Origin: an uncultured Chthonomonadaceae bacterium
Lineage (GTDB): Bacteria > Armatimonadota > Chthonomonadetes > Chthonomonadales > Chthonomonadaceae
Direction of reading: 5' to 3'
DNA: 64,000 nt
NCBI GenBank assembly: GCA_963817895.1
Contig: CAWFQB010000004.1
Location: 64,001-128,000 of the forward strand
A program made the position numbers and the translations under genes. Of the stretch, positions 23,531 through 50,329 are shown piece after piece; positions within the stretch are counted from its first letter, which is position 1, and each line of letters starts with the position of its first letter. The notes beneath the pieces are model-generated. The model was not told where the DNA came from. It searched no databases and saw only the letters and a list, made by a program, of their open reading frames with translations.

Positions 23531-23720
23531 TCAATCTGTGATGGCCTTAATGAAACCATCCCGCACATCCACATAGTAGACGATAGTAATTCGTGCCGCC
23601 ATGTCATCGGAAAGATCGTTTAACTGACGGCGCGCGCTGACTGGAAACAGGATAGTTTGTGCGCCTTTTTCGACCGCCAGTTCCGTCACCGCTATGGCAT
23701 TGTGGATCGGCTCAAAGCAA
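23531..23720 (-). pseudogene. BrxL (Lon-like) C-terminal remnant
   Basis: EPIHNAIAVTELAVEKGAQTILFPVSARRQLNDLSDDMAARITIVYY resembles the extreme C-terminus of BREX BrxL-type proteins. Confidence 0.7.
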
Positions 23721-23825
23721 TAGCCCATACTCATGTGCTGACAACCACGAACACCAAAACTATCCTGATACCAAAACAATTCCATGTCTGACCTTGACAT
23801 TTTATCTGTAAGATCAACTCTTATC

Positions 23826-26800
23826 TTATTCACTAAACCGGAGTTTCGCAGTTGCTTTGGCAAGAATGGCATTCAGTTTCGTGGCAGATTCAGCGGCTTG
23901 ATCGCCTTCAGCACTAATGGAAACCTCAAAGGCAAATGTTAATGTGGGCGCTTCCGCGGTTAGTTCGCTAAGTATGTCGCTGATTTTGCTGAACTCCAGC
24001 GCACTGATCGTGGCTCCTGCGATGATCGTGTTGGAAGGAGTGGGTAGTGGAAGCGCCCCCCCTGTGCCTGTACCTGTACTTGCATTGGTTTTCAATTCAA
24101 GAGTTACCTGGCCCGCTTTATTGGGGGCGCAAGGCCACGAATTGGCGTCCACTACGGTAAATATTCCCCGCTGTCTGCCGGTATCCACCGCACCTCGCAA
24201 GAGAGACCAGGGAACTGCATAACCACGCTTCTGGTTGATGCCCTGCCAGATTTGTTCCAACGACGCCTGCTTGTCCTGCCAGACATATCCCAGTGCATCC
24301 GGCATAAGGTCTTCAGGTTTGAGGGCATCCGGGGGGGCGAGTAGTTCCAACTCGTCCACCAGTGCTTCAGCAAGCATGAGTTCCCTGTAATAGGAGCGTG
24401 ATGGAGTGCGCGCCCAAAGAATGCCCAGTTGAACGGCATTGGCAACGGCGGTCGTGAGTACATTCGGCAGTAGTTTGGGCGCACGCTTGCCATCGAAATA
24501 GGCTGCCAATTCGCCCATCAAAAGGGGTTCCGATGCAGATTTCCAGAGATTGGGCAGCCCTTCCGGTGCCAAGAGAACAGCATCCAATTCTGTCAATTCA
24601 ACATCGGCAAGTGGTAAAACTTCCAGTTCCGGGCGGGCCAGTTCCTCATTGTTGGGACGCACGCGCCAGAGGGTGCGAAATGTTTTGTCAGGGCGCAGCA
24701 GTCGCAGTACGAGCGCGCCCTCTTTGCAACCAACGGCAAGCGTGTTGCGAAATATCTGCGCGGAGAGAAATCGAGGCAGGCGTGGGAACTGTGCAAAGGC
24801 TTTAACCATGTCTTGCGCCTTTTTTGCAGTTTCTCCCGGTGCCCACAATTCGTAGTAACTGTCGGGCAGTAGCAATTCGGCGGCAAGTTCGCCTGTGATC
24901 AGACGATCCTCTCCATTCAGCATGGCTTTGATGCGCGCGAAGGGGCGCGTGTCCTCAATGCCGAGTGTATCTGCGCTTTTGAGAGATTGCGCACGTACGT
25001 TCCCGTCCTCGTCCATATCTAAGACGACGCCATACGTGGCGCGCACATAACTCGGCATATTGTCTTCCGCCGCCTTTTTGCGCTCCGCAAGCGTTTTCTT
25101 CTGCGCAGGCGTCAGGCTTTTTCCAGTCTCGCTGCTTTCCACGCGCTGCCACGCCAGATACTCCACGACACTACGGCGCAATGGGATCAGGCGCGTGGCA
25201 TCCGGGGCCAGGGCAACAAGCGCGTTTTTATAGGTACGCGGGGTTTGCGCCGCGCCGCGCGTGTCGAAAATGGCAGCAACGGCAGACGGAATGAAGGGCG
25301 GCGAGGTATCGAGGCGTACGGCGCAATCAGTGTTCAAGACAAGATAGCGCAATTCGGGCGTGTCCCCATCTACATCTTTGGGGCCTTGCGGTAATCGGTG
25401 TACTATCACGCCTACGTCTGCGCCGCCCTGTCCGCCGTCCACAGCAGACAAATCCTTAACCTTGTTAATCTGTGCGAACAGTTCGTCGTTAATGGTGTTC
25501 TGGTTCTTCTCGACCTCCTGCATCTGGTTGACGTGGATGTGGGTCAGGTTGGGCTGCGTGGTGATACGCCAGATGTTTGGCTCCTCAGTCAAAAACCAGG
25601 ATAGATTACGCCAGTCTTCAAGTCCCGTTTCCAATGCCGCCATGTCCACGCCCGGATGCACGAGCAGGGCATATAGATCGGAGTTTTCGGCTTTGTAGGT
25701 TTGGGGCTGGCAGTGCAGAAAGGTTGCTAGAACGGCCTGTTCAATCTCACGCTGCGTCAGGGCTTTGGCTTTATCCTGCGCCTCGCGTGCCCGATCCATC
25801 TCCTCATTCAGTTTCGTTGTCCACACATCCTGACCATCAGAACAGATGCGCGCCATTTCCGATATAATGGACGGCAGGAGTTTATCCGGGCCGAGGAACG
25901 CATGAATGCCTGCAACTGGCGAAGGATCGTTTCCATTGCTTTGCTGTAAGGCTTGGGCCAGCAGACGCAGCGCACCGCGCGTACGCTGAAAGCGCGGCAG
26001 TTCCGTCCATTTCGCATAAAACACTTCCAGCACATCGGGATGAAATGGATAGGATTTCAGATGGCGCTGATAGGCGGCATTGTCGGTTTGCCCTTGTCTC
26101 AACTGTTTGCAATTATTATAAGCGGCGAAAACGGCGTCAATGATCGGGCGGCGCTCGTTTTCATTCGGAACATATTCAAACAGACGACGGCGCAGCACTT
26201 CCGCCAGGTCATCACGGCCCACAGGATCGTTGGTGGTGGCGAGGCGTCCGAAGACATCTTCCAGCGCGCGCAGCACACGCGCTCCCGTTACGTCATCGGC
26301 CTCGTTTTCGGAGGCAAGCAGGGTGGCAACGATGCACGCGCGCGGCGTGGCGGCGACCGCCTGCGTTAAAACCTGAAAAAAATCTTTGAGCGTTCCCAAG
26401 TTCTTGTCGTTGGCATTGACCGCTTTGCGGCAATAGATCACGGCCTCATCCACGAGGATCAGGGTGGCTTTGCCTTCGGCTTGCGGGGCTCCCAACAGTT
26501 CTTTCAACAGCGGCTCCGCAGGCGGCTCATAGTTTTCCTCGTGCTGCTGCACTTTCGCGTAGCCTGCATCGCCTGCCAGTTGGTAGGCCAACGCGCCCCA
26601 CGGCGTTTTTACACGGCGGGGCGTTCCATCCGGGCCGATAACCTCGAAGCCTTCCAGATACCCAAAATCGTCCAGGGGGAGCAAGGCTACGCGGGCCGAG
26701 GGCATCGTGGGCAATCCGGTGCTCGCGACAAACTCCTTCACAGTCGGGTTTGCGGCTACTTCCTCGGCGCGCTCGGCAAGGTGCAATAGCGTGATCAAGG

Positions 26801-27077
26801 CATGGGTTTTGCCTCCGCCATAGGATACTTGTAAGCGCACGACCGGCTTTCCACCTTTATCCGCAAGTCTCTGAAAGACATCGCGGACGAGTTCCTTCAT
26901 CCGAAGCGTGGGGAATGTACGGGAGAAGAATTTCTCTGGGGCACGGTATACCTCTGGCGTATTGCCGCCGATGCGTACGCCGTTGAGTTTGGCGGCGAAA
27001 TCGGCCTCTTGGAGTGTGCCGGTTTTTACGTCTTCGCGGAGTTTACAAAGGGAGTGCCAGGTGGGTGCAATGGGCAT
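23826..27077 (-). CDS. DUF499 family AAA+ ATPase
   Basis: W..LREDV..ADFAA, Walker A YGGGKTH, Walker B LILVDE, SYPFHP and FQRTRGALRLLA. Confidence 0.9.
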   Translation of the reverse strand: MPIAPTWHSLCKLREDVKTGTLQEADFAAKLNGVRIGGNTPEVYRAPEKFFSRTFPTLRMKELVRDVFQRLADKGGKPVVRLQVSYGGGKTHALITLLHLAERAEEVAANPTVKEFVASTGLPTMPSARVALLPLDDFGYLEGFEVIGPDGTPRRVKTPWGALAYQLAGDAGYAKVQQHEENYEPPAEPLLKELLGAPQAEGKATLILVDEAVIYCRKAVNANDKNLGTLKDFFQVLTQAVAATPRACIVATLLASENEADDVTGARVLRALEDVFGRLATTNDPVGRDDLAEVLRRRLFEYVPNENERRPIIDAVFAAYNNCKQLRQGQTDNAAYQRHLKSYPFHPDVLEVFYAKWTELPRFQRTRGALRLLAQALQQSNGNDPSPVAGIHAFLGPDKLLPSIISEMARICSDGQDVWTTKLNEEMDRAREAQDKAKALTQREIEQAVLATFLHCQPQTYKAENSDLYALLVHPGVDMAALETGLEDWRNLSWFLTEEPNIWRITTQPNLTHIHVNQMQEVEKNQNTINDELFAQINKVKDLSAVDGGQGGADVGVIVHRLPQGPKDVDGDTPELRYLVLNTDCAVRLDTSPPFIPSAVAAIFDTRGAAQTPRTYKNALVALAPDATRLIPLRRSVVEYLAWQRVESSETGKSLTPAQKKTLAERKKAAEDNMPSYVRATYGVVLDMDEDGNVRAQSLKSADTLGIEDTRPFARIKAMLNGEDRLITGELAAELLLPDSYYELWAPGETAKKAQDMVKAFAQFPRLPRFLSAQIFRNTLAVGCKEGALVLRLLRPDKTFRTLWRVRPNNEELARPELEVLPLADVELTELDAVLLAPEGLPNLWKSASEPLLMGELAAYFDGKRAPKLLPNVLTTAVANAVQLGILWARTPSRSYYRELMLAEALVDELELLAPPDALKPEDLMPDALGYVWQDKQASLEQIWQGINQKRGYAVPWSLLRGAVDTGRQRGIFTVVDANSWPCAPNKAGQVTLELKTNASTGTGTGGALPLPTPSNTIIAGATISALEFSKISDILSELTAEAPTLTFAFEVSISAEGDQAAESATKLNAILAKATAKLRFSE

Positions 27078-27123
27078 TATTTTTCTCGATAGACTTGATT
27101 TACCGGCATAACCCGGCAGGGAG

Positions 27124-28072
27124 TTATTCTGGTGTCTGATGTCGTTCAAAGAATGGCTGCCACTCTGCCAAGTCGAAATGACCAGGCGGTGGCAATGGGG
27201 CATGACGAACGGGCGTCATCTCGGTATAGAGTTCATCGGTAGCGTACTTATATTCCGCAAACGCATAGAAAACGCCGTTTGGAGCCAACAGATCAAGCGT
27301 TCGTTCGTACCAGGCTACATAGGCCGGATCAGGGCCGTATCCAACAGCGGCAATCACAGGATAATGCCGAATGTACTGTTTTGCGAGTGCGTACGGGGAC
27401 ATGAACCATGTTTCCGGGTTCTCAAAAGCGCGTTGTTCCTTGCCACTTGTATAGAAATGCACCGAACTATCCTGTCCAAGCAGTTGTACGATACCATCGG
27501 GCAACTCAAACGCTAGTGCGTCAGATGTCTGCTCACGGCTCGCGTGTATCCATGCCGCGGGCGCAATCATACATCGCCATGTTCCCAAACCGGAAACGTA
27601 GGCACAGGCGCGCAGGCGCTCGAACCCCATACGGTGCAACTCGCGCACCATCAACAACACGTTCCTATATGGGGAAACGCACAGCGTTTCCGCTGTCGCA
27701 AGCATCGCCAGATCGCGCTGGCGTGTTGTCACGCTTGCGGAGTTCTGAATACGCGCGCGGGCCTCATTAGAAGTCATACCACCGCAGTGCTGCCGTATCG
27801 GAATGCACATCGCACGCGCAATCGCGGATCAGACCAGCAAAATACCAACTGACGCTATTCGGCGTAATCCAGACATTGCCAACAGGATAGGCGCTGACGC
27901 TTGCCTGTCCAACCTGCTCTTGCAGGCACCGAATAAGCGCGGCGGATGGCCTTTCGCCTGGTATCCTCTTGACCTTGCTGAATGTAGCGCTAACACTATA
28001 GGGATGGCCCCGTGGTTCAGCGACAAGGAATTGTCCTGCCTGGTTGACGGGAACAAAACCAATGTGTGTCAC
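27124..28072 (-). CDS. Nudix-like domain fused to an uncharacterised domain (probable frameshift near 27770)
   Basis: Degenerate Nudix box PGERPSAALIRCLQEQVG. LRWYDF/NEARARI joins after removing one base. Alternatively two overlapping genes. Confidence 0.55.
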
Positions 28073-28120
28073 GCCCGCAGGTACAATCGTATCTATGGGT
28101 TCCTGTCAGTCCCTCTGGGA

Positions 28121-29473
28121 TCATCTGTCCTCCAATGGAGGCTTCGCCGTCAGATCACAGTCGCCTTCCACGGTGATGATGGGCGGATCAACATTCTGGT
28201 ATTGCCTGTGGCGTCGCCCGCGGAACTTTACATGAAGCATATTACCATCGCGCGGCCCCAATGTGAGTTCAAGAACATGCTCAACCGTTCCGCTGGTTTT
28301 CAGATTAAATATCGCCCACAGACGCGCCAATGGTAAGAAAATTTCCTCTTGATCGCGCATTCGCTCCCATATCTCCGGGAAGATGCTGCCCACCACCTTG
28401 AGACGCCCGCTAAGTCCTCGCACTGTAGTCAGCAGCAGCAGATCATTCGGATCAGTACGGTTTTGCGTACTCTTAGAGGGTAACTCGTTTAGCAACAACA
28501 GCCGCGCGCGCAGGGTGGCTATATCGTCCGCAGAGTAACCATTGATGCCGATTTCGTTAAACATGCCGGATGACACATCTTGCGGTTTCAAGACAATAGA
28601 CCACACCTTGCCGGAGGCATTGGCTATTGAGGTTGGGGGTTGTACCGTTGCGAAACCACCATCATTTTGAATGGCAAAAAGAAGCGGTTCGCTACGCTGG
28701 TATGGCTGCGCGCGCAACGATTTGACAAACGCATCATCTTCTGCACCATTAGAGGTTGTCTCGATTACAATGCTGCCGTCATCAGCATCTTTGATGCTTT
28801 CAGCAAGAAAAACTTTTTCATTCAGCAGAACCCACATGCCGGAACTGTTGACCTGTGCAGGAGAGGAGGGCCGGCAAACCATCTTGTCTTGTTGCGACGG
28901 ATCATGGGGCGGCTGCACCGGCGCAGGCGGGCTGGGTGGCTGAACGTTACGAGATGCGAGCCATTGCTGCACCTGTCGGTTAAACTTAGCACGAAAATCG
29001 GCAGTGTCGGTAAAGTCACCAATTAAGCCACGAGAAAAGAGTTCTTCACGGAACTGCATGACCTTAAACTTTTGCTCGGCTTCCTTCGCATTGGCGGGGT
29101 TGTAAGCCTCCTGCTTGAAATAAAACATAATGTCCGGCTTTCCGTGCTGCTCAAATGCTTTCACAGCCCGCTCGAACTCCTCCACAGTGCCAGACGCAGC
29201 ACGCGGCGTCTCGTAGCCAAATCGATTCCACATGATCGCCACAAAGAGATCATACTTAGTCATGTCACCAATTTCATCGTTAAGTTTCTCTTGTCCATCG
29301 CCCCCAAATGATGGGAATGAGTCAGTGTCCCAGCCAACGACATCGAAAATGATGTTTTTATCTCGTCCAACTGTGCGGTTGAGGTCTTCAATGACGGCGC
29401 GCATCGCTTCACGCTCGGCTTGCACGTCTCCAGGAGAGGCCAGAAATACGGTCAGTTTCTCAACGCTTGCCAT
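28121..29473 (-). CDS. DUF4062 (TIR/NDT-like) domain protein
   Basis: VFLASPGDVQAER, DLFVAIMWNRFG, SGTVEEF and IMFYF; C-terminal domain unknown. Confidence 0.85.
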   Translation of the reverse strand: MASVEKLTVFLASPGDVQAEREAMRAVIEDLNRTVGRDKNIIFDVVGWDTDSFPSFGGDGQEKLNDEIGDMTKYDLFVAIMWNRFGYETPRAASGTVEEFERAVKAFEQHGKPDIMFYFKQEAYNPANAKEAEQKFKVMQFREELFSRGLIGDFTDTADFRAKFNRQVQQWLASRNVQPPSPPAPVQPPHDPSQQDKMVCRPSSPAQVNSSGMWVLLNEKVFLAESIKDADDGSIVIETTSNGAEDDAFVKSLRAQPYQRSEPLLFAIQNDGGFATVQPPTSIANASGKVWSIVLKPQDVSSGMFNEIGINGYSADDIATLRARLLLLNELPSKSTQNRTDPNDLLLLTTVRGLSGRLKVVGSIFPEIWERMRDQEEIFLPLARLWAIFNLKTSGTVEHVLELTLGPRDGNMLHVKFRGRRHRQYQNVDPPIITVEGDCDLTAKPPLEDR

Positions 29474-29479
29474 TGTTTG

Positions 29480-32400
29480 TTACTTCCCCTCATAGTCCAT
29501 CGTCATTGTTTCCGGTTTGACAGCAGGCGCGGTTACAGAGATACTACGCCCTCGGCCCCAGGCTATTACGGCTTCGAGCAGGGTGCGCTCACGGGACTGT
29601 GGTGCGTGCATTTCGGCAAACGCCTGTGCCACGCGCCAGAACAGATCGTTGTCGCCCAAGCCGTGCCGAGAGGCATATTCGGCAACGCGCGTGACATCAC
29701 CGCCAGCCCACTCGCGTACAAGTCGGTGCAGCATATCAATATAGAGCACACCATCCGTAGGATGCGGTTCTCCCAGGTCGTCACGCTTGCGCTCATCCCA
29801 ACGCAGCAGGCGCAGTTCTGATCCGCTGCCGCCACCAGTTTCATCGGCATCGGCGGGCGCGTCTGGAGCATCTTCATCTACTGCGGGTGCAGGTTTGCTT
29901 TTCGCTTTGCCCAAGATACCGCGCGGCCCGGACAACGCTCCCAAAGCGAGATTATACGCACTCGACAGCAAAATACATTCTCCAACCGGCGCACCCTCAA
30001 TACCGAAGTTGCTTTGGTGCATTAAGGCGTAGCGCGTCCACTCATCCAGACCTTCCGTGCCTCCCTCTACAATTTGCCCCAGCGCAAAATCAGTGGTGAT
30101 GCGGCGCACTTCCTTCAAAAACTCACTGACAGAAAATGGCTTGGCATCGTTGCGACGCACTTCATCATACGCGGAAAATGCTTCAAGGCCGGGGCCGACG
30201 GCGGCCCATAAGAAGTCAGGCCCGCGTACACCGATGTCCCAAAAATAGCGCAGGCGTTCTGTGATGCGCTCCTTCATGCGCGGCTGGACTTGTTTGTACC
30301 AGCCTTTGCCTGCATCAGCAGGACGCTTGCGGCAGACCAGCCACACGGAGGAGGACAATGCGGCAGAATTCTGTGCGCGCGTCCGGTTGCCCATTTCGGT
30401 ATCGATGGGCCATGACGCCGTAACAACAAACCCTGCGCGTATCATGGCAGCCGTAAGTGTTTCCCAGGCATCCGGCTGTTTATGCGCGAATACAACCACC
30501 ATGCGTCCATCTGTTTTCAGGGCGCGACAAGCAGCGCAAAATGCCTCCGCCATGCCGTCCTCATAAAACTGCTTCGCAGCCTCCTTATTCGCATGTCGGT
30601 CTGCGTGCTGCACCAATTCGCCGCGTTTGGGTGTGAGTGGTTCCGCAAAGGTCGCTCCGTAAGCATCCCCAACCGTGCGCCGCAACCATACATAGAAGAA
30701 GTCCGACAAGTCAGCATACGGAATGGCATCATAATACGGTGGGTCTGTCACAACAGCGTCGAAAATGTTACTGCCAGCCACTTCGGTTGCAGACCCATTT
30801 ATCATGTCAACTGCATTGCCGGACACTGCTTCGCACGCATGTTTCACGACAAGTTCAATCCACTCGATGCCACCCCAATAACCTCCTGTTGTATCACTTG
30901 TTGTCTTGACTTCTGTGAAATCCCAGTTCATCGAGAAGCGCAAAACGCGAGAAGGTGTTGGACATTTTTTCGCCGCTGACATGCCAATGTGTGAATACTG
31001 CTGCCATAATCTGCAAGACGGTCAATGGCAATGGCAAGATAAGCCGTCACTCCTTCAGGCAGGATAGTGCGATCCGCAGTGGTAATGAAAGCATACGCAA
31101 TTTGCATTGCGGCACGGGCAACCCGCGTGTGCTTGACGAATGTTCCTAGCGCGAACAATTGACGTGGTGTGAACAGTTTGCCCCATTGGTCTAATCCATA
31201 CTGCGCCACGTTAAAGGCTGAACCGCCGCCTGTTCGACTGGCACCAACAGGAGTTGGCTCGCATGGCAACCCATACGGCAGTTGAGCGGCAAGAGTGTCC
31301 ACCGCATCCAGCGCACTTTCTGCGGCCTCATCCTCATACGGTGTTGGCGGGCGATACTCCTTGCCAGGCTTGATGCCCGCCTGCAAACGAGCCGTGCGCA
31401 CTTGGGGCAAATTTTTGGGAGCCTGTGGCACGTCCACGACAACGGCTGTGCAAATTGCCCCCATCTGCCCATTTTTGCCGCACGATTGCAGATAATCGCT
31501 TCGCAGGAAAACGCCCGTTTTGCCATCGCCAGTAGGTGGGACACTGCACGCCCGTTCGTAGACATTGTGCCTGATACCTACCTCGCTGTCATGCGCAGGC
31601 GTGAACACCTCGAAATCGAAGCGGTTGTGGCGCGCATTGTACTCCATGCGGAGGGCGCGTTTTTTGCCCGCCTTTTTGCACAGCCACATGGTTTTCAACA
31701 GCGGCACACGCAGGCCATTCAATCGTGGATCGGGGTGCGGCACGGTGCGTGCCCATAGATAGGCCACGGTCGGGCAAAGAGGATTTATGTCGCTTTCCGG
31801 CGCGTCAGGGTTGAGCGGCAGCGTAGGATAATACGCGGCTAGATCGCGGCGGGCGCGTTCCAGCACCCAGTTGCCCCACCAGCGCACATGCGCGGCAAGA
31901 TCGCCGGTCTGCACGGGAACATCCTCGCCCAGGGCGCGCTGTGTACCGTCGAGAGCCAGTGCGCCCTGCTTGGGCATCAGGCCCGGCTCCGATTCTGCCG
32001 ATTGTGCGGGCAGAGGCCAGGTCTTGCCAGCGAGTTTTTGGGGGTATTCCAGCGTACATTTCAGTAAAAACCAAGCGACCGGGTTGTAATCTATCGCCGT
32101 CACATCGCAGCCCAGGCGCATGGCTTCCAGTGGGATCGCGCCGCCCCCGCGAACATGTCCAGAACGCGGGGCGCGCGTCCGCCATACGCCGCGCGGATTT
32201 CCTCGCGGAATCGGGCCATTTCTGCGTCCGTGCGCGCTTTCTCCTGCTGCCGTTTCTTGTCGGCCTTCGGATCGCCTTCCCAATGCAGGATGCCGCCCAC
32301 CGTCTCCTCAACCGTTTTTGCTTCCGACTGACTGGTGGCCTCCTTGTGAACGGTGACGACCTCGCCCCCGATACGGCTGACCAGTTCAGCGCGCGCCTGT

Positions 32401-32582
32401 GCGGTGCCGGGGTCGGGCAGCAGCGCGGCAATCAAGGCGGCGCGGCAGGCAGCAAGCGGACGGCGGGCAGGCCAGATGTGCAGGGTGCTGATGTGCCCGT
32501 GCCGGACGTTTTTCTCATGCACACAGTTCAGACTGGCTTGCTTTAGGGGAAAGGCTTCTTCAATGAGGCGTTTATCGGTCAT
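29480..32582 (-). CDS. DUF1156 adenine DNA methyltransferase (frameshifted in this sequence)
   Basis: RLIEEAFP..STLHIWPARRPLAACRA, motif I DMFAG/GGAIPLEA, motif IV TDPPYYD; frame changes near 32145 and 30950-30990. Confidence 0.9.
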
Positions 32583-33490
32583 TGTGTGTTCTGGTCGTTG
32601 CTTTCTGAGATACTTTGCTGAAGGTAGGCTAATGGAACAGAATCCTTTTGAACGCCATAGGAAAGTTTCGGCTGCTCCTCCTTATACTCGAAAACCAATT
32701 TTACTGGTTCTTTCGCTTCCAGTTCTTCTGGTATGGATTGCAGCATTGCGTCGAGTTTGTGAAAGCCAGATTCAAAGAGGCTATTGATCTGCTCCTGAGT
32801 CGGGTTTGATAAAAGAAGATGAACCTCCATTTTCCTCTCCGCTTTTTCTACGGCGAACCGGAAATCAAGTATGTTCTCTTGGGCTTGCGGATTTGTAGGT
32901 TGCACATTTTTGCCGTGGTAAAAGCGGCCTAATCTCCTTTTCAAACTATCGTATCCATCCGCACCTACCTTTTGCAGAAAGCCAACAGCAACATTCCCGG
33001 CTAGGAAAATACCTGCTGTAATGAGAAGCACAGACACAGGTTCCATTGAAAACTTGAGCATTTCACTCATGTTTTCATCCGACCCAGAAAGACGAGTAAT
33101 CTCCTCAATAAAATCTTTGTCTTCCGGTGTCACGAACGACGCATCATACTCCACCTTGAACGTTTCTATCTCGTCAGTACACACAACGATGGTTCTGCCA
33201 TCTCCGCGAAAATTTTCAAGTGCGCTGTCCTCATCGTCTGACGCAAACAGTTCGGTTGTGCCCATCAATGCGTACTCACCATCTTCAAGTTGCACAACGC
33301 TAACGTCAATCACTCTGCCAACAGGGGGAATGCGTATATCGTGTTCAATGTTGACGGGAATATAGTATTCTCTGGCAGAATCCACCTGCCTTTCTAAATC
33401 TTCGCGGGTAAACCGTGTCCCATCAGGCAATAGGTGGGTCGTGACCAAAATACCCTGCAAACGTTTCATGTTGACTTCCTTATGAGACAA
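32579..33490 (-). CDS. Hypothetical protein, N-terminus resembling prohead protease/assemblin, with a hydrophobic helix
   Basis: DGTRFTREDLE..IPVNIEHDIRIPPVGRV..DGEYAL; translationally coupled to the methylase (ATGA). Confidence 0.6.
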   Translation of the reverse strand: MSHKEVNMKRLQGILVTTHLLPDGTRFTREDLERQVDSAREYYIPVNIEHDIRIPPVGRVIDVSVVQLEDGEYALMGTTELFASDDEDSALENFRGDGRTIVVCTDEIETFKVEYDASFVTPEDKDFIEEITRLSGSDENMSEMLKFSMEPVSVLLITAGIFLAGNVAVGFLQKVGADGYDSLKRRLGRFYHGKNVQPTNPQAQENILDFRFAVEKAERKMEVHLLLSNPTQEQINSLFESGFHKLDAMLQSIPEELEAKEPVKLVFEYKEEQPKLSYGVQKDSVPLAYLQQSISESNDQNTQ

Positions 33491-33570
33491 CTCACACTGA
33501 ATATATTGTGAGTGCGGTGTGCTGGATAACGCGGGGCTGAGGCGCTACGCTTCTGCGCCATCCATGCCGT

Positions 33571-36500
33571 TTACGGCAGCGCGATTTCCACATAGTCAAT
33601 GCCTAGCAGCAAACATTTGGAGCGCACGTCATCGGGAACAGACGGCGCTACAAGAATGCTGCGGATTTGCGCGCATGGTACGCCCTGCTCGACGGCAAGC
33701 AGATGTTTGTATTTCACCGCCTGCCATACGCCCCCATATTCACCAGGCTGGATACCCGGCTTGACTTCGACAGACACGGGAGAACCTGTGGCATTTTGCA
33801 GCAGCACGTCCACTTTATCGCCGGACGGGAACTGGTACTCCGGCTGCACCAGGGTCAGCCCCGGCCCGCATAAATGGGGATTGTTGGCGATTTTGGCTTT
33901 CAGCGCTTGATGGATTTCTCCCTCACCGCCACCGCCGCCAGAACCGGAGCCGCCGCTGCCAGTCGTGTTCCCCGTCCTGCCATGCGAAGTGCCACCGGAA
34001 TAGTGACCGGCTCCTGATGGGGGCAGTGCAAGGTTCTCATTTCGGTTCGGGGGCGGTTGCCGCGTATCTGATCCGGGGCTGTTCTGGGTGTCGTCAGGAC
34101 GGTTCCCAGGTGGAGAGTTGAAATTACTGGCGTTGTTGCCGGTATTGCCTGTCCCACGCGGCGCACCGGAATTATTCGCCTGTGAACTGCCATTTTCCTC
34201 TGTCGCGGCCCCGTCTGTTTCGTCTTGTTCGGCGTTGTCGGGCGCGGAATGGCCCGCCTCCGGTTCCCGTTCGGTTTCCGGCTGTTCTTCATCGTGGGAT
34301 GGCTCTGATTCGGGCGGCTGCTGATAGCGCAGCCCGCGCTTTTTCCAGCGGGCCAACACACGCTCCCACTCACGTTCCGTGTTGGCTTTCAGCAGACTGG
34401 AAACAAACTCGCGCAATTGCGCAACGCCGAAGTAGGTTTGCAAGGCATCGCCAATCGAATCGGGGTATTCGGCATCATCGGCTTTCAGCGTAATCCATAG
34501 GGTTGCTGTCGCTTCGTCGGCTTGCAAGTGACTTAATAGCGGCTCTGGGTCGGCAACCTCTGCGCCGCCCAAGTGGTAGATAACTTGAGCGTCTTCTACC
34601 AGAGCAACAGTTAAATCGCGGAGTATTTCGGTAGTTGCATTTTCATTTAGCCCTTGATTTAAGTGTGGGGATGCTAGAAAATTGGCAACCGGGGTTTGAA
34701 GACGCTGTGTTTTTCGCATCCAATTTTCAAGATCAGAGCGTGCCCCCAATGGAATAAATTCGGTTTGCGCGTGAGAACAACGGGTCACTTCCAAGTAGTG
34801 GGCAAGCGATTCAACATCTACATAGGGCCAGAACGGTAGTACGCCGCTAAAAAGATCGGCATGATAGTCGTGGTCGTTCCACACCAACTCGGAGCGATGA
34901 TAGAATCCCCACTGATCACCGCGACGCCCCAGCCAACAGTGCGCGCCCCACAAGTCCTGCCAGAGCGCCAGCCGCTCGGCCTCCTGGGGAGCCGTTGCTG
35001 CCATTTCGGGCGCTGCATTGGGCAGTTCCGCAAAAAAGCGTTTGTATAGTGTGTGCAGCCGTGTGCGGGCGTGGTCAGACACGTCAATTCGGGCTGCCAT
35101 TTCCAGAGCAGCCTCGACATAATCCGCAAATTTGGCGCTGGGTTCCACCCCCTGCGCGACAAAAAACGCTTGTAGCGTAGGTGCATAATGCACTTTTAGG
35201 TAGCCACGTTCATCGCCGAAGATAGTGTTTTCATCATCCCAGAACGCTTTGTTTGCTCTCCACCATCGGGGAGTCGGGGCTGGCGTGTACAGCAGAGGCT
35301 CCAAAGCAAAAAGGGGCTGTCGTGCGCCGATGCTCTGGTCTTGCAAAAACCGGTAGATGCGCTCTACGTCCTTCACGTCAACGCTTTGCTCGCTCAAATC
35401 CTGTAGCCGCCGAAGCGCCTGCTCCGTCTTCACCGCTAGGTTCACACCAAGCGCTCTGGCAAGCGATTCAGCAGGTCGTTCCTTCACTCCCAAGTCAGAG
35501 TGCAGGTAGTGTACACTGTCGCCAAGCACCGCTCGTGTTTCTGCAATGTCGGCAAAAAGTGTCTCTGGCGTGTAAAACTCGGCATTCGTATCTGGTATCC
35601 ATGCCGTGGTCATCAATTTTTCTGCAAAGGTCGCGTAGAAATTTTTTGGCTGATATTCTGTGTTGCGATTCTTCCATCGGTATATGCCGAAGAAATACCG
35701 ATCCTGTTCCATTTTATCTGTTGGAATACCCCGAACAAGTAGTCGCCAGAGGGCATACGCTGTTGGCAAAGCGGTTTCGCCTCGCATAGCGATGCGTTCG
35801 AGCGCTTTGTCTAAGCCATCCAATTCCCAGTTGATAATATCAATGTCGGAAGTATACGCAGCCCCAGAGCGGATATGTGCCTTTCGCTCTGGGGATAGTT
35901 CATTTGTACTCTTACGCCGTGGAACCACTTCGACGCCGAGGCGCTTGAACAGGGTACACCACCGTTCCACATCTCCATCCTCGTTCAAGTAACTCTCATC
36001 CACAAACCGCTTGTTGGCATCGGCAAAGTAGGTTTCCAAGTCGCTCGACCCAGTGTAAGCCTGGGGCAGATAGGCTCGTTTCGGACTGACATAGCACTGT
36101 GTCTCGCCCATTTCCCTGCGGGCAAGCAGGAAGGGCTGCTCATTGATACTTTCTGATAATGCTTTTGACTTGTCTGACGGAAGCGATTCCAATGTTTTGG
36201 CGAGAAAAGCAACATGAAACCGGTTTTCGGCCTCCGTAAAATTATGCTTTCTCTTGTACTTGGGCAGCAACCATCCACTTAAGAAGCGCTCCGGGTTCAG
36301 CGGTTCAACCCCTATATTCTTGAGGAAAAGTCTGACTTCTTCAACCGCATCCCCTTCGAGCAATGCCATTCTAAAGAAGGGCAGGTTACTAAGAAACGGA
36401 CGGAACGTGGTCTGCTGTGCCTCATCATCCGGGGTGAAAAAGCACCATTCCTGATCAGCGATGACGTGTTCACCATTCTCTAGTCTGGCTAATGGGGCGA

Positions 36501-37999
36501 CTTTCAATCCCTCGTGTTCCACTTTCTGCTGCGCCAAATAGACATATAATGTGTGCAGCCAATCATCGTCTTTCGCCGCATACCAATCAGCCTCTTTGGT
36601 ACATAACCACGTTGCGATCTGCGTCGCAGTGACCTCACGAACCCGTACATCACGTACTATCTGTAATGCTCGCTCATTAGCCTGCACATCAGGATGAAGC
36701 CACGCGGCTCCCTCTGTTTTAGTAATTTCTGCCAAGTCCGAGGCCGAAAATAGTGCGCGCACATTCCGCGTGCGCGGGAAGAACACGCGACTGGCGTGTA
36801 GGCAACTTCCATCTTCGGTAGGGATCAGTTCGCCATCAAGCAGGGCGTTGCGGGCTGCCACTTGTACAGGCTTGAAGAATAGTGGAAATTGGTCACTAGG
36901 GGCTGGCAACGCTTCTAAAAGGTTTACGGTGAGCAGTCCGGCAGTCTTCAAACGTTCCAGAGCGGCTGGAAGCAGTTCCGCTGTTTCTTCCATTAGCCAA
37001 TGGTTCCAAAGAACATCCGTGTTTATGTCGTTGCGAGAGGGAATTGTCTGGTAGCGCGCCTGGATAATAAAACGCAAATGGGTTTCGATGCTTGTAGGTA
37101 GGTAGGCAAAGAGGACGGAGTTTTGTATGGAAGCCACCAAGTCATTCTGCGTAGCGAAAGCGATTTCGACCGGCTGCAAACTCTCCGCCGAGCGCTTAAT
37201 GCGTTCGCGCTCATCATCGTATTCCGCCCGTTCCAATAAATCAGCAATCACTTCTTGGGGCGGGGAAACATCGCACCGGAAAACTACAAACGATTCCAGA
37301 ACTGGTTTGCCCCCTCCGGCATCGCTCATCAATTCAACATGCTGTGCGTCCATTACGCGGGCGTGTGGCTGCCGAGAAGAACAGTATGTGCCTTGTAGGT
37401 TCTGGCGCTCGTCTCTCCATTCGATGGCTTCCAGATTCCGCAAAAACAGAAGCGCCCATTTGTCTAACTCCTGCAATTGAGTTCCAATTCGTTCAATTTC
37501 TCCGTCGCGTAGTCGCTCTTTGAAGGGCAGGCGAAACACCGTTCTGCCAGATGTGACGAGTTGCTGAAATCTCTGTAGACGGAATGGGGATTGGTTCGGG
37601 TTGGATACCTCCAATGATGCGGAATTGACGCTCCCCAGAGTAGATTTCCGGTTGGTCGGTGCAGGTGTAAACTGCCTTGAACCCTATACCATGTGTCCCA
37701 ATCTGGGTGAGGTCTTTGGTACTCTCGCCTATGGAGCATATCGCATGAACACCGGCTTCATCGAAACGCCGCCCGTTGTTCGACACCAGCATTTCACCGG
37801 CACGCAGGACGATGGCAATGCCTTTGCTATTTCCATCAGCGGTTGCAGCAACGCCTGCAAGGGCATCATTGGCGTTCTGAATTAATTCGTATACAAAATG
37901 CGATCCGTTCGGGTAAAGGCGCGTGATAATTCCGATGGCGCGGGAGAGAACGTGGCGAAGTCGTTCATAATCCATTGGGGGAAGGGTGTTTGTCTGCAT
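33571..37999 (-). CDS. Sacsin/NO VEIN-like GHKL ATPase with C-terminal PD-(D/E)XK nuclease (frameshift near 37580)
   Basis: YELIQNANDA, NNGRRF, IGTHGIGFKAVY, TVFRLPF, LFAYLPT; C-terminal EGEIHQALK..EYQFPSGDKVDVL..VEVK..Q..KY. Confidence 0.85.
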
Positions 38000-38040
38000 A
38001 GGATACGTTTCAAAACCTTTCTGATGCCTGCTGGAATGGA

Positions 38041-38924
38041 CTACAATTTGAACTCTTTTTGTTCACGCCTGGCTTCTGCGCGTGCCATGCGCGCAAACCG
38101 CAATACGTCATTCGAGGCGACACTCTCCGCGTTTGGCGGTACGCCCGTAAAGACCAGTGCAGGCAAGCGTAATGCTCCACCATCGATTCTCAATTCGAGC
38201 GTTCCCTGGGCTGGAGCATAGCGCAGTATCAAAGGCTTTTCATCGGGGAGGGCATCTTTCTCGCCGCAATAGCACAGAAAGCGGAAGGCGGCGAAGATGC
38301 CGAGGCGAACAGGTTCCTGCCATGTCCCCGGATCATCCACAGCAATATCGAATTCCATACCCCGCCCTAACTGGAAGGTGTGAATGGGCGTGATCGTCAA
38401 CTTGGCGTTACCAAATTCGGAAGATACGGAAAGAAGAATTTCCTGATCCATGCCTAAACCATCGCGCGTCAGGAAGCGCGCAATTTCTTTTATGGCGCGG
38501 GTGTCGATCCGCAAGCATTGGCTGCCATCCGGCAGCGGAAGGCGTGTGTCCGGGCGCGCATACCCTTCGCAAGCAAGAAAACGATGTAGCACGCCTCCAA
38601 ATCAGCGTCAAGCCAAACGGGAGAAATGTACAATTCATTCAGAAGGCAATATCCCAGCAGACAAGCCCCTCGATCCGGCATCATCTCTGCGGAGGCTCCT
38701 ATTTGCGCATGGTTGCTGTAAAGAACATGCCTTACGTCTTCATCCGCGAGCAATTCACCAAGCATCCCCAGATTTTGGACTCCTCGCAGATACAATGTCA
38801 AATCCTTACCGTTGACGAGAATACCACGTCCATCCTTGTCCATTTCATGTAGACTGACAGAGGGCGCGCATTTGGTAGGGTCGTATTGAATTCCGATTGG
38901 GATTGGATGGCTCATTGGTATCAC
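38041..38924 (-). CDS. Hypothetical protein (frameshift near 38590)
   Basis: ORFs 38490-38924 and 38041-38592 overlap and fill the gap in the operon exactly; no recognisable motif. Confidence 0.6.
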
Positions 38925-41900
38925 ATAATGTTCGGTATTGCGGCTCCCAGCACGCTGGCAGCAGGGATGACAACGCCTCCGCCTTTTGCCAGCAGATTGC
39001 CAAAGGGGTCAGCAACGCGATGAAGTTGCGGCGTGTCCGTGTCACAGTGATACACTGTATACAACCAGTATTTGTCCCGATGATTGGCAGCCTGCCGCCA
39101 TTCGTTTTCCGTCAGTTGCACAGGCGCAAGCCCCGCCCGCCCTTTAACCTCGATGTAAAGCACGAAGCCATCAGGCCGATGTGAGCGTAGGTCGTAGCCC
39201 GTGGCGAGGTTGGGATTGGAAACATCCTCTATCCATGCGCCCTGTTCTTCCTCATGCTGGCGTACTACCTTAAGCGCGACCACTTCGGCCTGCACATCAC
39301 GACGGCGTACAGCCTCCTCTGGCGGCAAGGGCAGGACAAGCGCCCGCGCATAGATCGTGACCGGCCCAAAATTCAGCAAATCAATTTCCTGATACAGTGT
39401 GCTGATTGCCATATCGCGGGCATCATCCAACCCGGTGAGTTCCTTTTCCAGCCTGTCTAATTTGCTTTTTGCCGCAGGCACACCCTTTGTTACATCGTCC
39501 TTCAGACGGCGGCGCTGCGTCATCCCTTCGGCGGCGCGCAAGTTGTACGCCTGTACGAGTTGGTTTTTGCGCTGCGGCAGACGGGCCTGTAATTCTGAAC
39601 GCAGGCGTTCCACCAGGGGAATGCCCTTTTCCTCCATGATATAGCCCTCTATGGGAGCCGGATTGTCCACAATATCACAAAGCACTTGAGGAATAGTAGG
39701 AGGCGCGCTTTCTGCACTCGCAGGCGTCGCATCCATGTCTAGTGTCAGCAGCAGATGCGCGGGGACAGTTTGCATAGCGCCATTGGGCCGCAACACTACA
39801 CCGATCATTTCCTCGCCCAGGGTTTCACGCGCATCGGTCGGCTGCCCCTCACCGTCCAGAACCGGGCGCACAACGGCAATCTTTGCCAGCGCGAATACAT
39901 ACGCTTCCGTCGTGTTCGGGTCGTAAAAAGTCGCACCGCGCTCCGTGCCGTCCTCAAACCTGCCCAGAAACAAATCCATGATACTCTCGAATACCGCCTC
40001 ACCCGGATGCAGGTAAATTGCTTCCGGGCGCATGGCATTCGTGGGCAGGGCGAGGTAGCGGTCGAATGTCAGCCGCGAATGGAGTTCGGGCGGATACGTT
40101 TCGATGGCACGCCGCACGGTTTCCGGGGAGTCCGCCAGCGTGAAAATGCCGTCCAAATCTCCTGCGAAACGAAGCCCCAGCAACGGGGCAGCATCGCGGA
40201 AAAAGCCACGCACATAGGCGGGCATCATACGACGCTCCTCCGCGGTTTCCTGTCCCCGGCGCAGAGTTTGCAGCAGTGCCCGTACTTCGCTGACCTCCAC
40301 GCGGCTTTCCTGAGCCTTCAATTTTTCCGCGAATGTCGCGGGATCGAACGCTTGCGCCACCACTGCCGCCGCCGCAGTTGCTTCCCCCTGTACTGCGGCT
40401 TGGAACAGTAAGTCGGCGAGTGAGATGCCTCCCAACTGCTCGCCGATAACGTCGAAAACCTTGTCGTTCCCCAACCGCTGACGAATAATCTCAATTTTAT
40501 CCAGCAGAGTTTGCAGAACCGCGCCTTCGCGTGTCTTTTCCGCCACTAGCGAAAGTAGCAGTACATCGTGGGTTTGCTTGTACCGATGCACACGCCCCAT
40601 ACGCTGCTCCAGGCGGGCAGGATTCCACGGGATGTCATAATTGATTAACAGCCAGCAAAATTGTAGATTGATACCTTCACCTGCCGCATCCGTTGCGATC
40701 ATATAGGGGCACTCAGGGGATCGAAAGCGTGCCGTCTGCCGCTCACGCTCACGGTAATCCATGCCGCCATGAACGGTCGCGATGCGGTCGGTGTAGCCCA
40801 TACCCTCCATACGCGCCACGAGGAAATTCAGCGTGTCCTTGTGTTCGGTGAAAATGAGTATCTTCGTATCGGGGTGTTCTTTAAGAAGTTCCTGCAACCG
40901 AAGAAATTTGCTCTCCTGCTGTGCATCGTACACAGCGCGTGCCAGTGCCGCAAGCGCCTGCACTTCCAGAAGTTCTTTGGCAAGTTCTTCCGGGCTGCGC
41001 GCAGGCGTCGCGCGGCTCACCACGTCATCGAACCGTTCGCCTTCCTCGGTGCCGTCTTCGCTTTCTTCCTCGTCCCCTGTTTTTTCCTCACGCAAATCCT
41101 GCGTGGGCAATTTGCCCTGTTCGAGGGCAAATTCGTCCGCGGTCAGCATTGCGTCCTGCAAACGTTTCAAATTTTCGGCGAGGATCGCAGCCCGACGTTC
41201 CAGGGAGCGCAGCAACGCCCAGGCGGAGGACGCCAGGCGGCGCTGAATCACCGATAGGGCAAGCCCAACCGAGGAGCGGTTCCCTGCTGTGGTCTTGCGG
41301 TAGTATTCCTCCACGTATTGCGACACGGCTTCGTAGAGCGTACGCTCATCCGCGTTGAGAGGATAAGACACCGTTTTGCTTTCGCGCGGTGGGTACAGAG
41401 GCGTGCCATCGAAGCGTACCATCTCCTCTTTCATGCGCCGCAGCAAATGGCGTCGCCGCACTTCGGGCCGGGTACGATAAAGCGCGTCGGGCGTGGAAAA
41501 CTGCTGCGGATCAAGCAGACGCCAGAGGAAAAAGTAGGGGTCATCCTTGCCCATGTGGGGCGTCGCCGACAATAGGAGAAGGTGCTGGCAGCGCGCCGCA
41601 ATTTCCTCAACCGTTTCATAGCGTTTGGATTTATCCGCGCTCAAGTCAGGATTGCGCCGGGCAGAGAGTTTATGCGCTTCGTCGCAGATTACCAGGTCAT
41701 ACGCAGGCGCATCGTTCAGGGCGGCGCGCACACGATCCTGTCGCGCGGTGTCAATGGATAAGATGGCATGGTCGAAGCGGGCGTCCGCAAAAGGATTATC
41801 GTCGGGACGCACATCCCGGGAGTTTACAATCCGAAACCGCAGGCGAAACAAGTTGCGGAGTTCCTGTTCCCAGTTGCCCACCAGTCCGGCTGGCGGGATG

Positions 41901-42409
41901 ACCAGAATCCGGCGAACCATCCGGCGCAGCATCATTTCACGGACATACAGACCAGCCATAATCGTCTTGCCCGCCCCGGCATCGTCAGCGAGGAGAAAGC
42001 GCAGGCGCGGGTGTGATACAAGCCCTTCAAGGCCATCAGGATGGTCAGCATCGGGTGGTATACCGTACACCGCGACCAATTGGTGCGGGAGCGGATCAAT
42101 CAGGCTGGTTTCCGTAGCGAAAACAGGATTAAACAGATAAGCATGGTTCAGGCGATGCGCTTCCGCCACCAGGCGCACCAGACACGCATCGGCGCGATAT
42201 ACGGCACTATCGCCTTCCAGCAGTTCAAAGCGCTTGGACAACTCGGCTATGACGTAGGGCCTGCGCTCAACCTCCCCGGTCTTAGCATCGCGCAATGTGA
42301 GAAACACCACGCTTGCCTGCGTTTCAACGGATTGCACAAGCCGCTCTTTTGCGCGTTGCCGATCATACAACCGTGTATTCGGTTTGATACTATTCAAAAA
42401 ATCGCTCAT
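38921..42409 (-). CDS. SNF2-family helicase with C-terminal DUF3883 nuclease
   Basis: PLPHQ, LADDAGAGKT, DEAH, LSATPH, EGINLQ, EQRMGRVHR; C-terminal GYDLRS..YIEVKG. Confidence 0.93.
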   Translation of the reverse strand: MSDFLNSIKPNTRLYDRQRAKERLVQSVETQASVVFLTLRDAKTGEVERRPYVIAELSKRFELLEGDSAVYRADACLVRLVAEAHRLNHAYLFNPVFATETSLIDPLPHQLVAVYGIPPDADHPDGLEGLVSHPRLRFLLADDAGAGKTIMAGLYVREMMLRRMVRRILVIPPAGLVGNWEQELRNLFRLRFRIVNSRDVRPDDNPFADARFDHAILSIDTARQDRVRAALNDAPAYDLVICDEAHKLSARRNPDLSADKSKRYETVEEIAARCQHLLLLSATPHMGKDDPYFFLWRLLDPQQFSTPDALYRTRPEVRRRHLLRRMKEEMVRFDGTPLYPPRESKTVSYPLNADERTLYEAVSQYVEEYYRKTTAGNRSSVGLALSVIQRRLASSAWALLRSLERRAAILAENLKRLQDAMLTADEFALEQGKLPTQDLREEKTGDEEESEDGTEEGERFDDVVSRATPARSPEELAKELLEVQALAALARAVYDAQQESKFLRLQELLKEHPDTKILIFTEHKDTLNFLVARMEGMGYTDRIATVHGGMDYRERERQTARFRSPECPYMIATDAAGEGINLQFCWLLINYDIPWNPARLEQRMGRVHRYKQTHDVLLLSLVAEKTREGAVLQTLLDKIEIIRQRLGNDKVFDVIGEQLGGISLADLLFQAAVQGEATAAAAVVAQAFDPATFAEKLKAQESRVEVSEVRALLQTLRRGQETAEERRMMPAYVRGFFRDAAPLLGLRFAGDLDGIFTLADSPETVRRAIETYPPELHSRLTFDRYLALPTNAMRPEAIYLHPGEAVFESIMDLFLGRFEDGTERGATFYDPNTTEAYVFALAKIAVVRPVLDGEGQPTDARETLGEEMIGVVLRPNGAMQTVPAHLLLTLDMDATPASAESAPPTIPQVLCDIVDNPAPIEGYIMEEKGIPLVERLRSELQARLPQRKNQLVQAYNLRAAEGMTQRRRLKDDVTKGVPAAKSKLDRLEKELTGLDDARDMAISTLYQEIDLLNFGPVTIYARALVLPLPPEEAVRRRDVQAEVVALKVVRQHEEEQGAWIEDVSNPNLATGYDLRSHRPDGFVLYIEVKGRAGLAPVQLTENEWRQAANHRDKYWLYTVYHCDTDTPQLHRVADPFGNLLAKGGGVVIPAASVLGAAIPNIM

Positions 42410-43097: not shown

Positions 43098-44349
43098 TCA
43101 GGGGTAAAGCACATTCTGCTTCGTGTTGGCTCTATGGCAATGGTCGAAACCCTCTTTATTACGGCAGTTGGGATTGCTCCTCATTTCCTGCTCAAAGAGG
43201 GCTTCCATCTCCGCCGAACTCATCGTCTCTGGGTTTAGAACATGGTAGTGCTTGCTGTACGCCAAGAGCAGGGCGGCTGTCTCGTAGTTGCGGCAGCCGA
43301 TAGCCACATGGATCGGTGTGATCCCCGAAACATCCGGCGCATCGGGATCAGCCCCCGCTTCCAAAAGCAGGCGAGTAATGTTTATCGTGCGCTGCATCCT
43401 AGCAACGGCATCGGTATAGCGCTTTTCTAAAACAGCACCAGGGCGCGGTTTCAGAACAAAACTGCTGACGTGCTGCATCGCTATTCGGTATAAGGCCGTT
43501 ACGCCTCGGCAGTTCGCGGCTTGAACATCGGCTCCATGAGAAAGAAGAAGGCGCACCATTTCTTCCTTGTTGTACTGGGCCGCAAGGTTCAAGGCAGTTT
43601 CGCCGAGAGCATTGCGCGCGTTGACATTGGCGTTGCATTCCAGCAACACCCTCACCAGCACTGTCCCATCATAAACGATGGCGTTGTGTAGGCAGGTGTC
43701 ACCGGTCTCATCGTCTTGTCTGTTGACATCTGCCCCGGCTTCGATTAAGGCGCGAGCAATGTTGGGGTACCATCGTATCTGATCTGGGACGTGCATCAGG
43801 TAAGCCTGCTCAGGATCGGCTCCGCACTCACACAGCGCACGGATGGACGCTTCTTCTCCACGATCAAGAGCCAGATCGAAGGGCGTCATATCTTTGTAGC
43901 ACACCTTATCGAGACGGTCAGGGTGGCGGGAGAATATCAGGCGGATCGAGATCAGCATCGCCGCGTATGATGGCACAGCGCACCGCCGACATCCCCGACT
44001 TGGGCGTGGCAAACACATCTGCGCCATGTTCAATGAGAAGGCGAACAACCTGATGTATTTGCGAAGTGTCGCCCGTGAGGTGCATCGCTAGGTCGAATGC
44101 TGTATTATAGGCGCTCCTTCGGAGTTGTTGGCTGGCTCCGCGCGCCAGCAGGAAACCCACCATCTTGGGATTAACCTGCTCGATTGCTTTGTGCAGCAGC
44201 GTGTAGTTGGAGGGATCGTGTTTATCGATCAGTTCCGGGCTGTCATCTAACAGTACCGTGAGACTGTCATAATCGTGCGCTTCGAGAGCGTGGAATAACT
44301 CCCGTTTCTGCTCTGCCAATATGTTTCTGTTCTTCTGAATAGTGGTCAT
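43098..44349 (-). CDS. Ankyrin repeat protein (frameshift near 43945)
   Basis: YTLLHKAI, GDTCLHNA, GETALNLAA and GITPIHVA across two frames. Confidence 0.85.
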
Positions 44350-47113: not shown

Positions 47114-47152
47114 TGGTTTATCTCCTTTATGCGGTAAAGAAATGGGTTGGTA

Positions 47153-50322: not shown

Positions 50323-50329
50323 CATGGCA

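Follow-up and report, generated by a model that had tools for sequence, protein, structure and literature searches.

We have analysed a 64,000-nucleotide stretch of DNA from an uncultured Chthonomonadaceae bacterium (assembly GCA_963817895.1, contig CAWFQB010000004.1, positions 64,001 to 128,000), hereafter called the window, and we conclude that a cluster of eight genes in it, all on the minus strand from position 42409 to 23826, is a known defence system with unusual cargo and not a new layered system. Quite probably, this is an Hma locus holding five passengers that likely have its promoter and its mobility in common and likely defend the cell independently of the core and of each other. 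The reading is based on gene content, gene order, motifs, folds and the independent distribution of the genes. The source genome (G000) has 7.5 Mb in 14 contigs and is 81% complete, and the window corresponds to G000:C4:64001-128000. The first-pass annotation, made from the letters of the window, had described eight co-oriented and tightly packed genes, on which the listing of open reading frames (ORFs) and the family scans agree. In gene order from hmaA, the gaps are -4, 41, 101, -4, 6, -4 and 46 bases, the 101-base gap shrinking to 80 if TTG at 33490 is the start of gene 4. Its calls of SNF2-DUF3883, sacsin-like GHKL ATPase-nuclease, DUF1156, DUF4062 and DUF499 domains hold in Pfam and PADLOC scans, DUF4062 just under its cut-off, and so does the more general view of a defence locus with extra defence-type genes placed between those of its core.

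The first gene, hmaA (38921..42409), is intact and encodes 1162 residues with a Swi2/Snf2 helicase and a C-terminal NOV_C (DUF3883) PD-(D/E)xK nuclease. The protein matches the PADLOC HmaA model over residues 31-1136 (E 8.5e-178) and the Pfam domains SNF2, Helicase_C and NOV_C, and it contains the motifs GAGKT, DEAH, SAT, QRMGR and GYD...EVK. The hmaB gene (29480..32582) encodes a DUF1156 N6-adenine methyltransferase and has three frame breaks. Its three ORFs match HmaB in PADLOC (E 8.6e-19, 1.6e-38 and 2.7e-61) and DUF1156 in Pfam, and the DPPY motif is present. The last gene, hmaC (23826..27077), is intact and encodes a DUF499 AAA+ ATPase of 1083 residues with the motifs YGGGKT and LVDE, recognised by Pfam and by the PADLOC HmaC model (E 9.7e-104), which gives 346 bits versus 74 bits for the DUF499 model PDLC02192. 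In PADLOC the DUF499, DUF1156_MTase and PLD_Helicase models all score far below the HmaA, HmaB and HmaC models. The motifs of these three proteins presumably have helicase, nuclease and Walker roles.

Judged by these matches, the core is the Hma system, named by Payne et al. in 2021 (PMC8565338), alias Type-1 BR. Rakesh and Krishnan (2026, PMC12839542) equated Hma with the DUF499-centred BR systems and described Type-1 as composed of only the ATPase, the N6-methylase and the helicase-nuclease, in 2446 taxa. All three are found in the window: a helicase with a C-terminal PD-(D/E)xK nuclease, a DUF1156 methylase and a DUF499 ATPase best recognised as HmaC. Pfam detected no PLD/HKD nuclease, as in Type-2 BR, at the helicase's N-terminus, and the PLD_Helicase model matches helicase residues 554-639 only. 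PglZ, which defines Type-3 (PMC12839542), was found neither in the locus nor in the genome by searches that recovered their controls in 3 of 14 cases; moreover, the Type-3 helicase is nuclease-less, whereas the helicase here carries a nuclease domain. The first-pass annotation had failed to recognise DUF3780, and indeed there is no match to it among the ORFs of the locus (Pfam) or in the 81% complete genome, where the search recovered 0 controls. This absence is not an oddity: it is expected here because DUF3780 is listed under the heading of Type-2-specific components in PMC12839542. The window shares HmaA, HmaB and HmaC in A-B-C order with Hma (PMC8565338, PMC11232893), that is Type-1 BR (PMC12839542), with genes inserted between them. 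It differs by its five passengers, three between hmaA and hmaB and two between hmaB and hmaC, by its divergent HmaC (35% to the closest relatives in the phylum), and by the lack of the N-terminal HEPN extension that many Type-1 HmaC proteins have. Among 300 further genomes of the phylum, HmaC-like genes were found in 55, not in the same-genus genome G261, and the search of a collection of genome contigs gave no close HmaC relatives.

Insertion of genes into Hma loci is the majority state. Payne et al. (2024, bioRxiv 10.1101/2024.01.29.577857) surveyed 1,485 Hma systems, of which 931 (62.7%) had embedded genes, in 376 different cassettes, and Liu et al. (2024, PMC11232893) reported an insertion in about 66.5% of Hma loci. 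We inspected 19 stretches around HmaC matches in the phylum, 11 of which had all three core genes. Embedded ORFs were found in 6 of these 11 (L025 being unclear besides these six), every set being different, and some match known candidates, e.g. HEC-02A and PDC-M48B. The HEC-01 to HEC-09 and PDC candidates of Payne et al. (2024) are independent defence genes nested in Hma, the same phenomenon as in the window, but no passenger of the window matches any HEC model, the comparison being with the library models. The main text of that study mentions neither Tiamat, Nudix nor DUF4062; its supplements and those of PMC12839542 may list the passengers found here. The undescribed layered variant proposed at first is thus a named core in the state in which most published Hma loci are found.

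The distribution of the passengers argues for their independence. Among 126 loci other than the window itself (a biased sample, each locus having been fetched by one gene, with many short loci and some duplicates), core genes occur in 39, passenger 3 in 31, the gene of the Nudix fusion or its C-terminal domain in 24, DUF4062 in 4, a Tiamat-like gene in 1 and the orphan in 0; the sizes of the families are lower bounds. Two passengers were never found together, and one passenger accompanies core genes only in L036 (Tiamat-like) and L066 (Nudix fusion). The proposal of a new system with inserted genes is half refuted by this check, the passengers lying mostly away from the core and never together; a new system with a fixed gene set was rejected on these co-occurrence data. 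The guanine-plus-cytosine (GC) content also differs, 45.5% for passenger 3 versus 56–58% for the core genes.

Seven frame breaks, unstated in the first-pass annotation, affect four of the eight genes in the assembly: one in gene 2 (near 38585), one in the Tiamat-like gene (37567), three in hmaB (near 32140, 30990 and 30935, mapped by comparison with intact homologues) and two in the Nudix fusion (near 28107 and 27770). They are most likely assembly errors, because the genome-wide rate predicts nearly as many and because three of the seven are absent from related contigs. The rate was obtained from 230 ORFs in twenty 20-kb stretches of G261, 121 of which had an orthologue in the source genome. 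Frame changes were found in 34 of these 121 genes; their number, 45 over 149 kb (0.30 per kb), gives 5.6 expected breaks in 18.6 kb versus 7 seen (P=0.33). Contigs from two public runs, X1 and X2, which come from related strains and not from the source strain, both have one base fewer at 37567 and one base more at 38585, and an X1 contig has one base fewer at 28107. Programmed frameshifting or decay is unnecessary to explain the split genes, given the genome-wide rate. With about 0.3 false frameshifts per kb in this assembly, split genes elsewhere in it are mostly artefacts and should not be taken as biology. A promoter-like site (42557-42528, 10/12 match) has no evidence value, being one of 21 such sites versus 12.6 expected.

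The first passenger (38041..38924), which overlaps the hmaA stop by 4 bases, is an orphan of about 295 residues with one frame break. Its C-terminal piece has no relative in database searches, including 0 of 41 genomes of the family, and no PDB sequence match; its N-terminal piece was compared with the family libraries and the fetched loci only. A sliding-clamp fold was considered for this protein after an atlas lead (0.90, with low recognition) but found no support: a genome search with PF02768 failed to return the orphan at E<=10, and the PDB gave no sequence match.

The second passenger (33571..37999), of about 1475 residues once the break at 37567 is corrected, is a Tiamat-like protein with a GHKL ATPase and a C-terminal NucS-like nuclease. 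Its two pieces match TmtA in PADLOC (E 1e-29 and 1.1e-53) and SACS and NucS_C in Pfam. Both the GHKL motifs (ELIQNANDA, NNG, GTHGIGFK) and those of a PD-(D/E)xK nuclease (VDVL...EVK...QAVKY) are present. In common with Tiamat (TmtA; bioRxiv 10.64898/2026.09.30.754977), it has a GHKL ATPase, a long core, a disordered linker and a C-terminal PD-(D/E)xK nuclease, and it neighbours a Snf2 helicase-nuclease and an adenine methylase; Tiamat genes often adjoin such genes according to the same preprint. We label it Tiamat-like only, because the nuclease scores as NucS_C and not as DUF3883 and because DUF3684 gave no match. Pfam finds neither of these two domains, yet the TmtA models cover residues 23-1195 of the long piece. 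The TmtA search was positive in 13 of 300 other genomes, two of which also have HmaC, on other contigs; these counts are too low, since the model missed the G009 genome, where a distant Tiamat-like protein (locus L036) aligns with that of the window over only 77 residues with 34% identity. A second Tiamat-like gene is present in the source genome (C1, L135:10418-16632); it encodes 1036 residues and overlaps the end of a 1035-residue ORF with a helicase domain.

The third passenger (32579..33469) encodes a 296-residue protein of an unnamed family (270–296 residues, 26 sequences in alignment A4). It had been called prohead-protease-like, of which an N-terminal resemblance stands, although it is weak. 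The first 80–90 residues weakly resemble the His-bearing half of prohead proteases. For the model (pLDDT, the predicted local distance difference test, of 85.5), the best rows are T4 gp21, with a root-mean-square deviation (rmsd) of 7.1 over 83 residues, and the varicella-zoster virus (VZV) protease (rmsd 3.6 over 74), both with Z 4.3, a score tied with unrelated folds; the protease matches cover residues 1-89 only. Many prohead proteases are among the BFVD rows returned by Foldseek, none at E<=0.001, and Peptidase_S78_2 is found in 3 of the 26 family members (best E 0.0032). The prohead-protease label stands as a lead because these weak fold, Foldseek and Peptidase_S78_2 signals converge. Residues 1-89 align weakly to the N-terminal half of clan SH proteases (T4 gp21, herpesvirus assemblin, XkdF) and keep the His-Asp pair, His43 being present in 26/26 sequences and His43-Asp44 invariant. 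Unlike in these proteases, the match ends by about residue 90–110, the C-terminal half is unrelated, the gene is cellular, and there is a candidate catalytic Ser only: residue 105, the guessed nucleophile, is Ser in 3/26 sequences, and Ser146, the other candidate, is found in 21/24. Within the whole-protein model, the C-terminal domain gave no clear fold match, which says nothing on fold novelty.

No relative of passenger 3 was found in viral contigs, plasmids or phage records. The family occurs in 1 of 400 genomes and at 29 metagenome loci, the atlas has unnamed clusters at 0.95–0.96, and Hma is beside it in none of 31 loci. Among its neighbours, a hand-picked subset was scanned (33 ORFs with PADLOC and 44 with Pfam). 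Defence-type genes were found at L103-105, which are a single locus (patatin, CBASS cyclase, Mrr nuclease), at L107 (HEC-09) and at L117 (caspase, NYN, TniQ). Other relatives lie amid housekeeping genes, e.g. at L114 between two genes that we take to belong to tryptophan synthesis. The tie of this family to defence is only moderate, because defence-type neighbours are found at few loci and others lie amid housekeeping genes.

The fourth passenger (28121..29473) is intact and encodes 450 residues, with a DUF4062 domain (TIR-like, a predicted NADase) followed by a 260-residue auxiliary domain. The Pfam match to DUF4062 reaches 23.9 bits (E 4.8e-5) for a cut-off of 24.7, and the match to the PADLOC model PDC-S60 covers only positions 5-167 of 906. 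The protein has F10 and E99-F100, like the published F11 and E87-Y88 pattern. The SGTVEEF segment with E99-F100 is kept in 3 of 5 aligned proteins, which are all three bearing DUF4062. Three preprints (bioRxiv 10.64898/2026.05.01.722283, 2026.06.25.731849 and 2026.09.04.749371) describe DUF4062 with an auxiliary domain as an abortive defence acting as a NADase. Likened by their descriptions, the DUF4062/NIR defences Swarozyc, Evangelion, Vulcan and Vesta share with passenger 4 a single-gene composition, the DUF4062 core, the pattern of an aromatic residue and a catalytic Glu, and a C-terminal auxiliary domain; in contrast, the auxiliary domain here has no Pfam or PDB sequence match and is also found behind TIR domains. 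This domain was found in 3 of 400 further phylum genomes and in 7 plasmid records, two of which are annotated as TIR proteins. In G261, whose genome gave no HmaC match, the orthologue of passenger 4 (55%) has a DruE-like helicase and PDC-S68 next to it. On a Nostoc plasmid (L132:4145-6705), a ThsA-type Macro gene is followed by a full-length orthologue of passenger 4, possibly a Thoeris-like pair. The source genome has another DUF4062-like sequence at C2:632493-632995, which carries a frame change.

The fifth passenger (27124..28124), of about 333 residues, joins a degenerate Nudix domain to an unnamed domain at the C-terminus. There are 21 homologues of 303–346 residues and one 179-residue piece, P0005-P0009 being 67–70% identical, and the closest relatives with names are Chthonomonadaceae/Chthonomonadales. 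Pfam detects NUDIX in 16 of the 22 homologues at E<=1 (best 2.4e-5). The Nudix-like call of the first-pass annotation was confirmed by the model of the intact homologue P0007 (pLDDT 85.3), where the Nudix fold is clear at residues ~16-150 (Z 15.6, rmsd 2.2–2.3, 119–126 residues aligned). The consensus of the Nudix box is GX5EX7REUXEEXGU. This box is not intact in the 22 homologues: the first Gly is found in 0, E57 in 21, R65 in 22, the next Glu is replaced by Cys in 21, E69 is found in 20, the last Glu in 0 and the final Gly (G72) in 21. The loss of the first Gly and of two Glu from the box suggests, from the sequence, that this domain binds its ligand without normal hydrolysis. Four of the eight loci with a full-length Nudix fusion are in or near defence loci: the gene is between hmaA and hmaB in the planctomycete L066, just after a BREX locus in L062, 7 kb after BrxL in L061 and after a DruE-like helicase in L067. 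The other four (L060, L063, L064 and L065) showed no defence neighbour, L060 and L064 being the two of them scanned with PADLOC. The C-terminal domain also occurs by itself, or joined either to a domain of metallo-beta-lactamase fold or to an ADP-ribosylglycohydrolase domain (L068:9071-10453, L069:8876-10477, L071, L073, L096), the lone domain being near BREX once (L073). It has no clear fold match within the whole-protein model, from which nothing follows on the novelty of its fold. No library model matches the families of passenger 3 and of the Nudix fusion, and no paper on either surfaced in literature searches; sequence searches of the PDB with alignments A2, A4 and A5 gave chance rows or none.

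By analogy with published homologues, for which defence by the HmaA nuclease, the ATPase/DNase activity of Tiamat and depletion of nicotinamide adenine dinucleotide (NAD+) by DUF4062 proteins are described, the core may work like a restriction-modification system. HmaB would methylate adenines of the host DNA, a scanning complex would be built on HmaC as its scaffold, and invading DNA would be nicked by HmaA through its Snf2 motor and fused nuclease. HmaA alone defends according to Liu et al. (2024, PMC11232893), and defence by HmaA has been demonstrated for the Halomonas homologue. The Tiamat-like protein could be a second ATP-driven DNase, and the DUF4062 protein would deplete NAD+ and abort infection once its auxiliary domain senses a phage product. 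From fold and context, we infer that the Nudix fusion would bind, and not hydrolyse, a nucleotide or an ADP-ribose-type ligand and so control its own C-terminal domain, and that passenger 3, with its putative protease fold, may recognise phage head-assembly proteins. Self-marking by methylation, shared transcription and any role of the orphan are likewise presumed.

Several observations weigh against a functional locus with independent passengers. HmaB was without effect on T4 (PMC11232893), and the methyl-mark step is weakened by this result. The close packing of the genes, with overlaps of 4 bases, suggests that their translation is coupled. A single X2 contig, which covers 37931-41681 and shows 158 differences over 3749 bases (~96% identity), links hmaA to the orphan and to the first part of the Tiamat-like gene; therefore this order is present in another strain. 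The Nudix fusion is located between hmaA and hmaB in L066, and the distant Tiamat-like gene of G009 (L036) directly follows hmaA. Finally, the three breaks in hmaB and the second break in the Nudix fusion are not covered by any near-identical contig, so real decay at those four sites is possible. The alternative that survives best is an integrated system with its passengers wired into the Hma core, e.g. as backups set free by phage inhibition of the core, in the manner of PrrC and its host restriction system. It would fit with the occurrence of the Nudix fusion inside Hma loci of two phyla, with the Tiamat-like gene after hmaA in two genomes, with the frequent proximity of Tiamat genes to helicase-nucleases and adenine methylases, and with the backup roles of embedded genes discussed by Payne et al. 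(2024). We nevertheless consider this integration unlikely: no locus has two passengers, core genes are found in 0 of 31 passenger 3 loci and in 0 of 4 DUF4062 loci, and the L036 protein resembles that of the window over a short segment only.

A two-gene signalling module is still less probable. In such a module, the product of the DUF4062 NADase, either ADP-ribose or a derivative of it, would switch on the C-terminal domain by binding to the degenerate Nudix domain. The two genes overlap by 4 bases, DUF4062 produces ADP-ribose according to the 2026 preprints, the Nudix box lacks two canonical glutamates, the C-terminal domain is joined to an ADP-ribosylglycohydrolase at L069, and the Nostoc plasmid orthologue of DUF4062 lies directly after the ThsA Macro gene. 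However, no DUF4062 relative is found in the 24 loci with the Nudix gene or its C-terminal domain, no Nudix gene in the 4 DUF4062 loci, and no other NADase among the subset of neighbours scanned; we rejected the pair on this lack of co-occurrence. Least probable of all is a decaying locus, with several real breaks, hmaB as a pseudogene and an old mobile element serving as a graveyard for defence genes, to which the three hmaB breaks, the nearby remnants of brxL, Argonaute and type IIG genes and the missing att duplication of the tRNA-Arg end would correspond, but the number of breaks is the one expected genome-wide, three of seven are absent in related contigs, the first hmaB break falls within a run of G, and the catalytic motifs are intact.

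With an Hma locus carrying independent passengers as the preferred reading, the operon as a whole adds little, since both Hma and its habit of collecting passengers are already published. Its value is as a source of candidates: 7 of 9 shortlisted embedded candidates were validated as active by Payne et al. (2024). It is possible, although the chances are somewhat short of even, that at least one of two passengers is a real new single-gene defence with a mechanism of the following kind. One would be a host protein with half a prohead protease (His43-Asp44), a hydrophobic segment and a second domain, acting as a decoy or sensor of phage head maturation. The other would be a hydrolase-dead Nudix domain with a new effector domain for reading a nucleotide or ADP-ribose signal, recruited twice into Hma and also to the ends of BREX and Druantia-like loci. 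If true, blocking or sensing of capsid maturation through a borrowed protease fold would represent a new means of targeting head assembly, and a degenerate Nudix fusion sensing a nucleotide signal would be a new class of receptor.

The surroundings of the operon contain several remnants of defence genes: a BrxL C-terminus (23531-23734, minus strand, E 1.5e-13), an Argonaute C-terminus (18141-18410, minus strand, E 1.3e-24) and a type IIG restriction N-terminus (18475-19215, plus strand, E 0.0038), all detected with PADLOC. Their presence suggests that defence genes have been turned over repeatedly at this site. An integrative-element module at 49191-56178 contains PD-(D/E)xK nuclease, Arc-like, excisionase-like and replication-initiator-like genes, with a tyrosine integrase (54853-56013) adjoining a tRNA-Arg (56103-56178). 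No duplicate of the end of this tRNA was found as an attachment (att) site, a 27-base match at C4:228025-228051 being another tRNA-like gene. In G261, a nuclease gene 88% identical to that of the window adjoins the DUF4062 orthologue, the DruE-like helicase and PDC-S68. A 671-residue protein (21487-23502, plus strand) has DxD and RTGxRGHQ motifs, which we take to recall primase-polymerases; it has no Pfam, PHROGs or PDB sequence match, and a 26% homologue also faces hmaC in the L036 locus of G009. Several ORFs with ankyrin repeats, two identified by Pfam and the rest by a look at the sequence, are located on both flanks of the operon (19491-20849 and 43098-49147). At 2844-8811, a transposase pair, of which G261 has three close copies, is followed by further ORFs that presumably form an ImuB-DnaE2 mutagenesis cassette.

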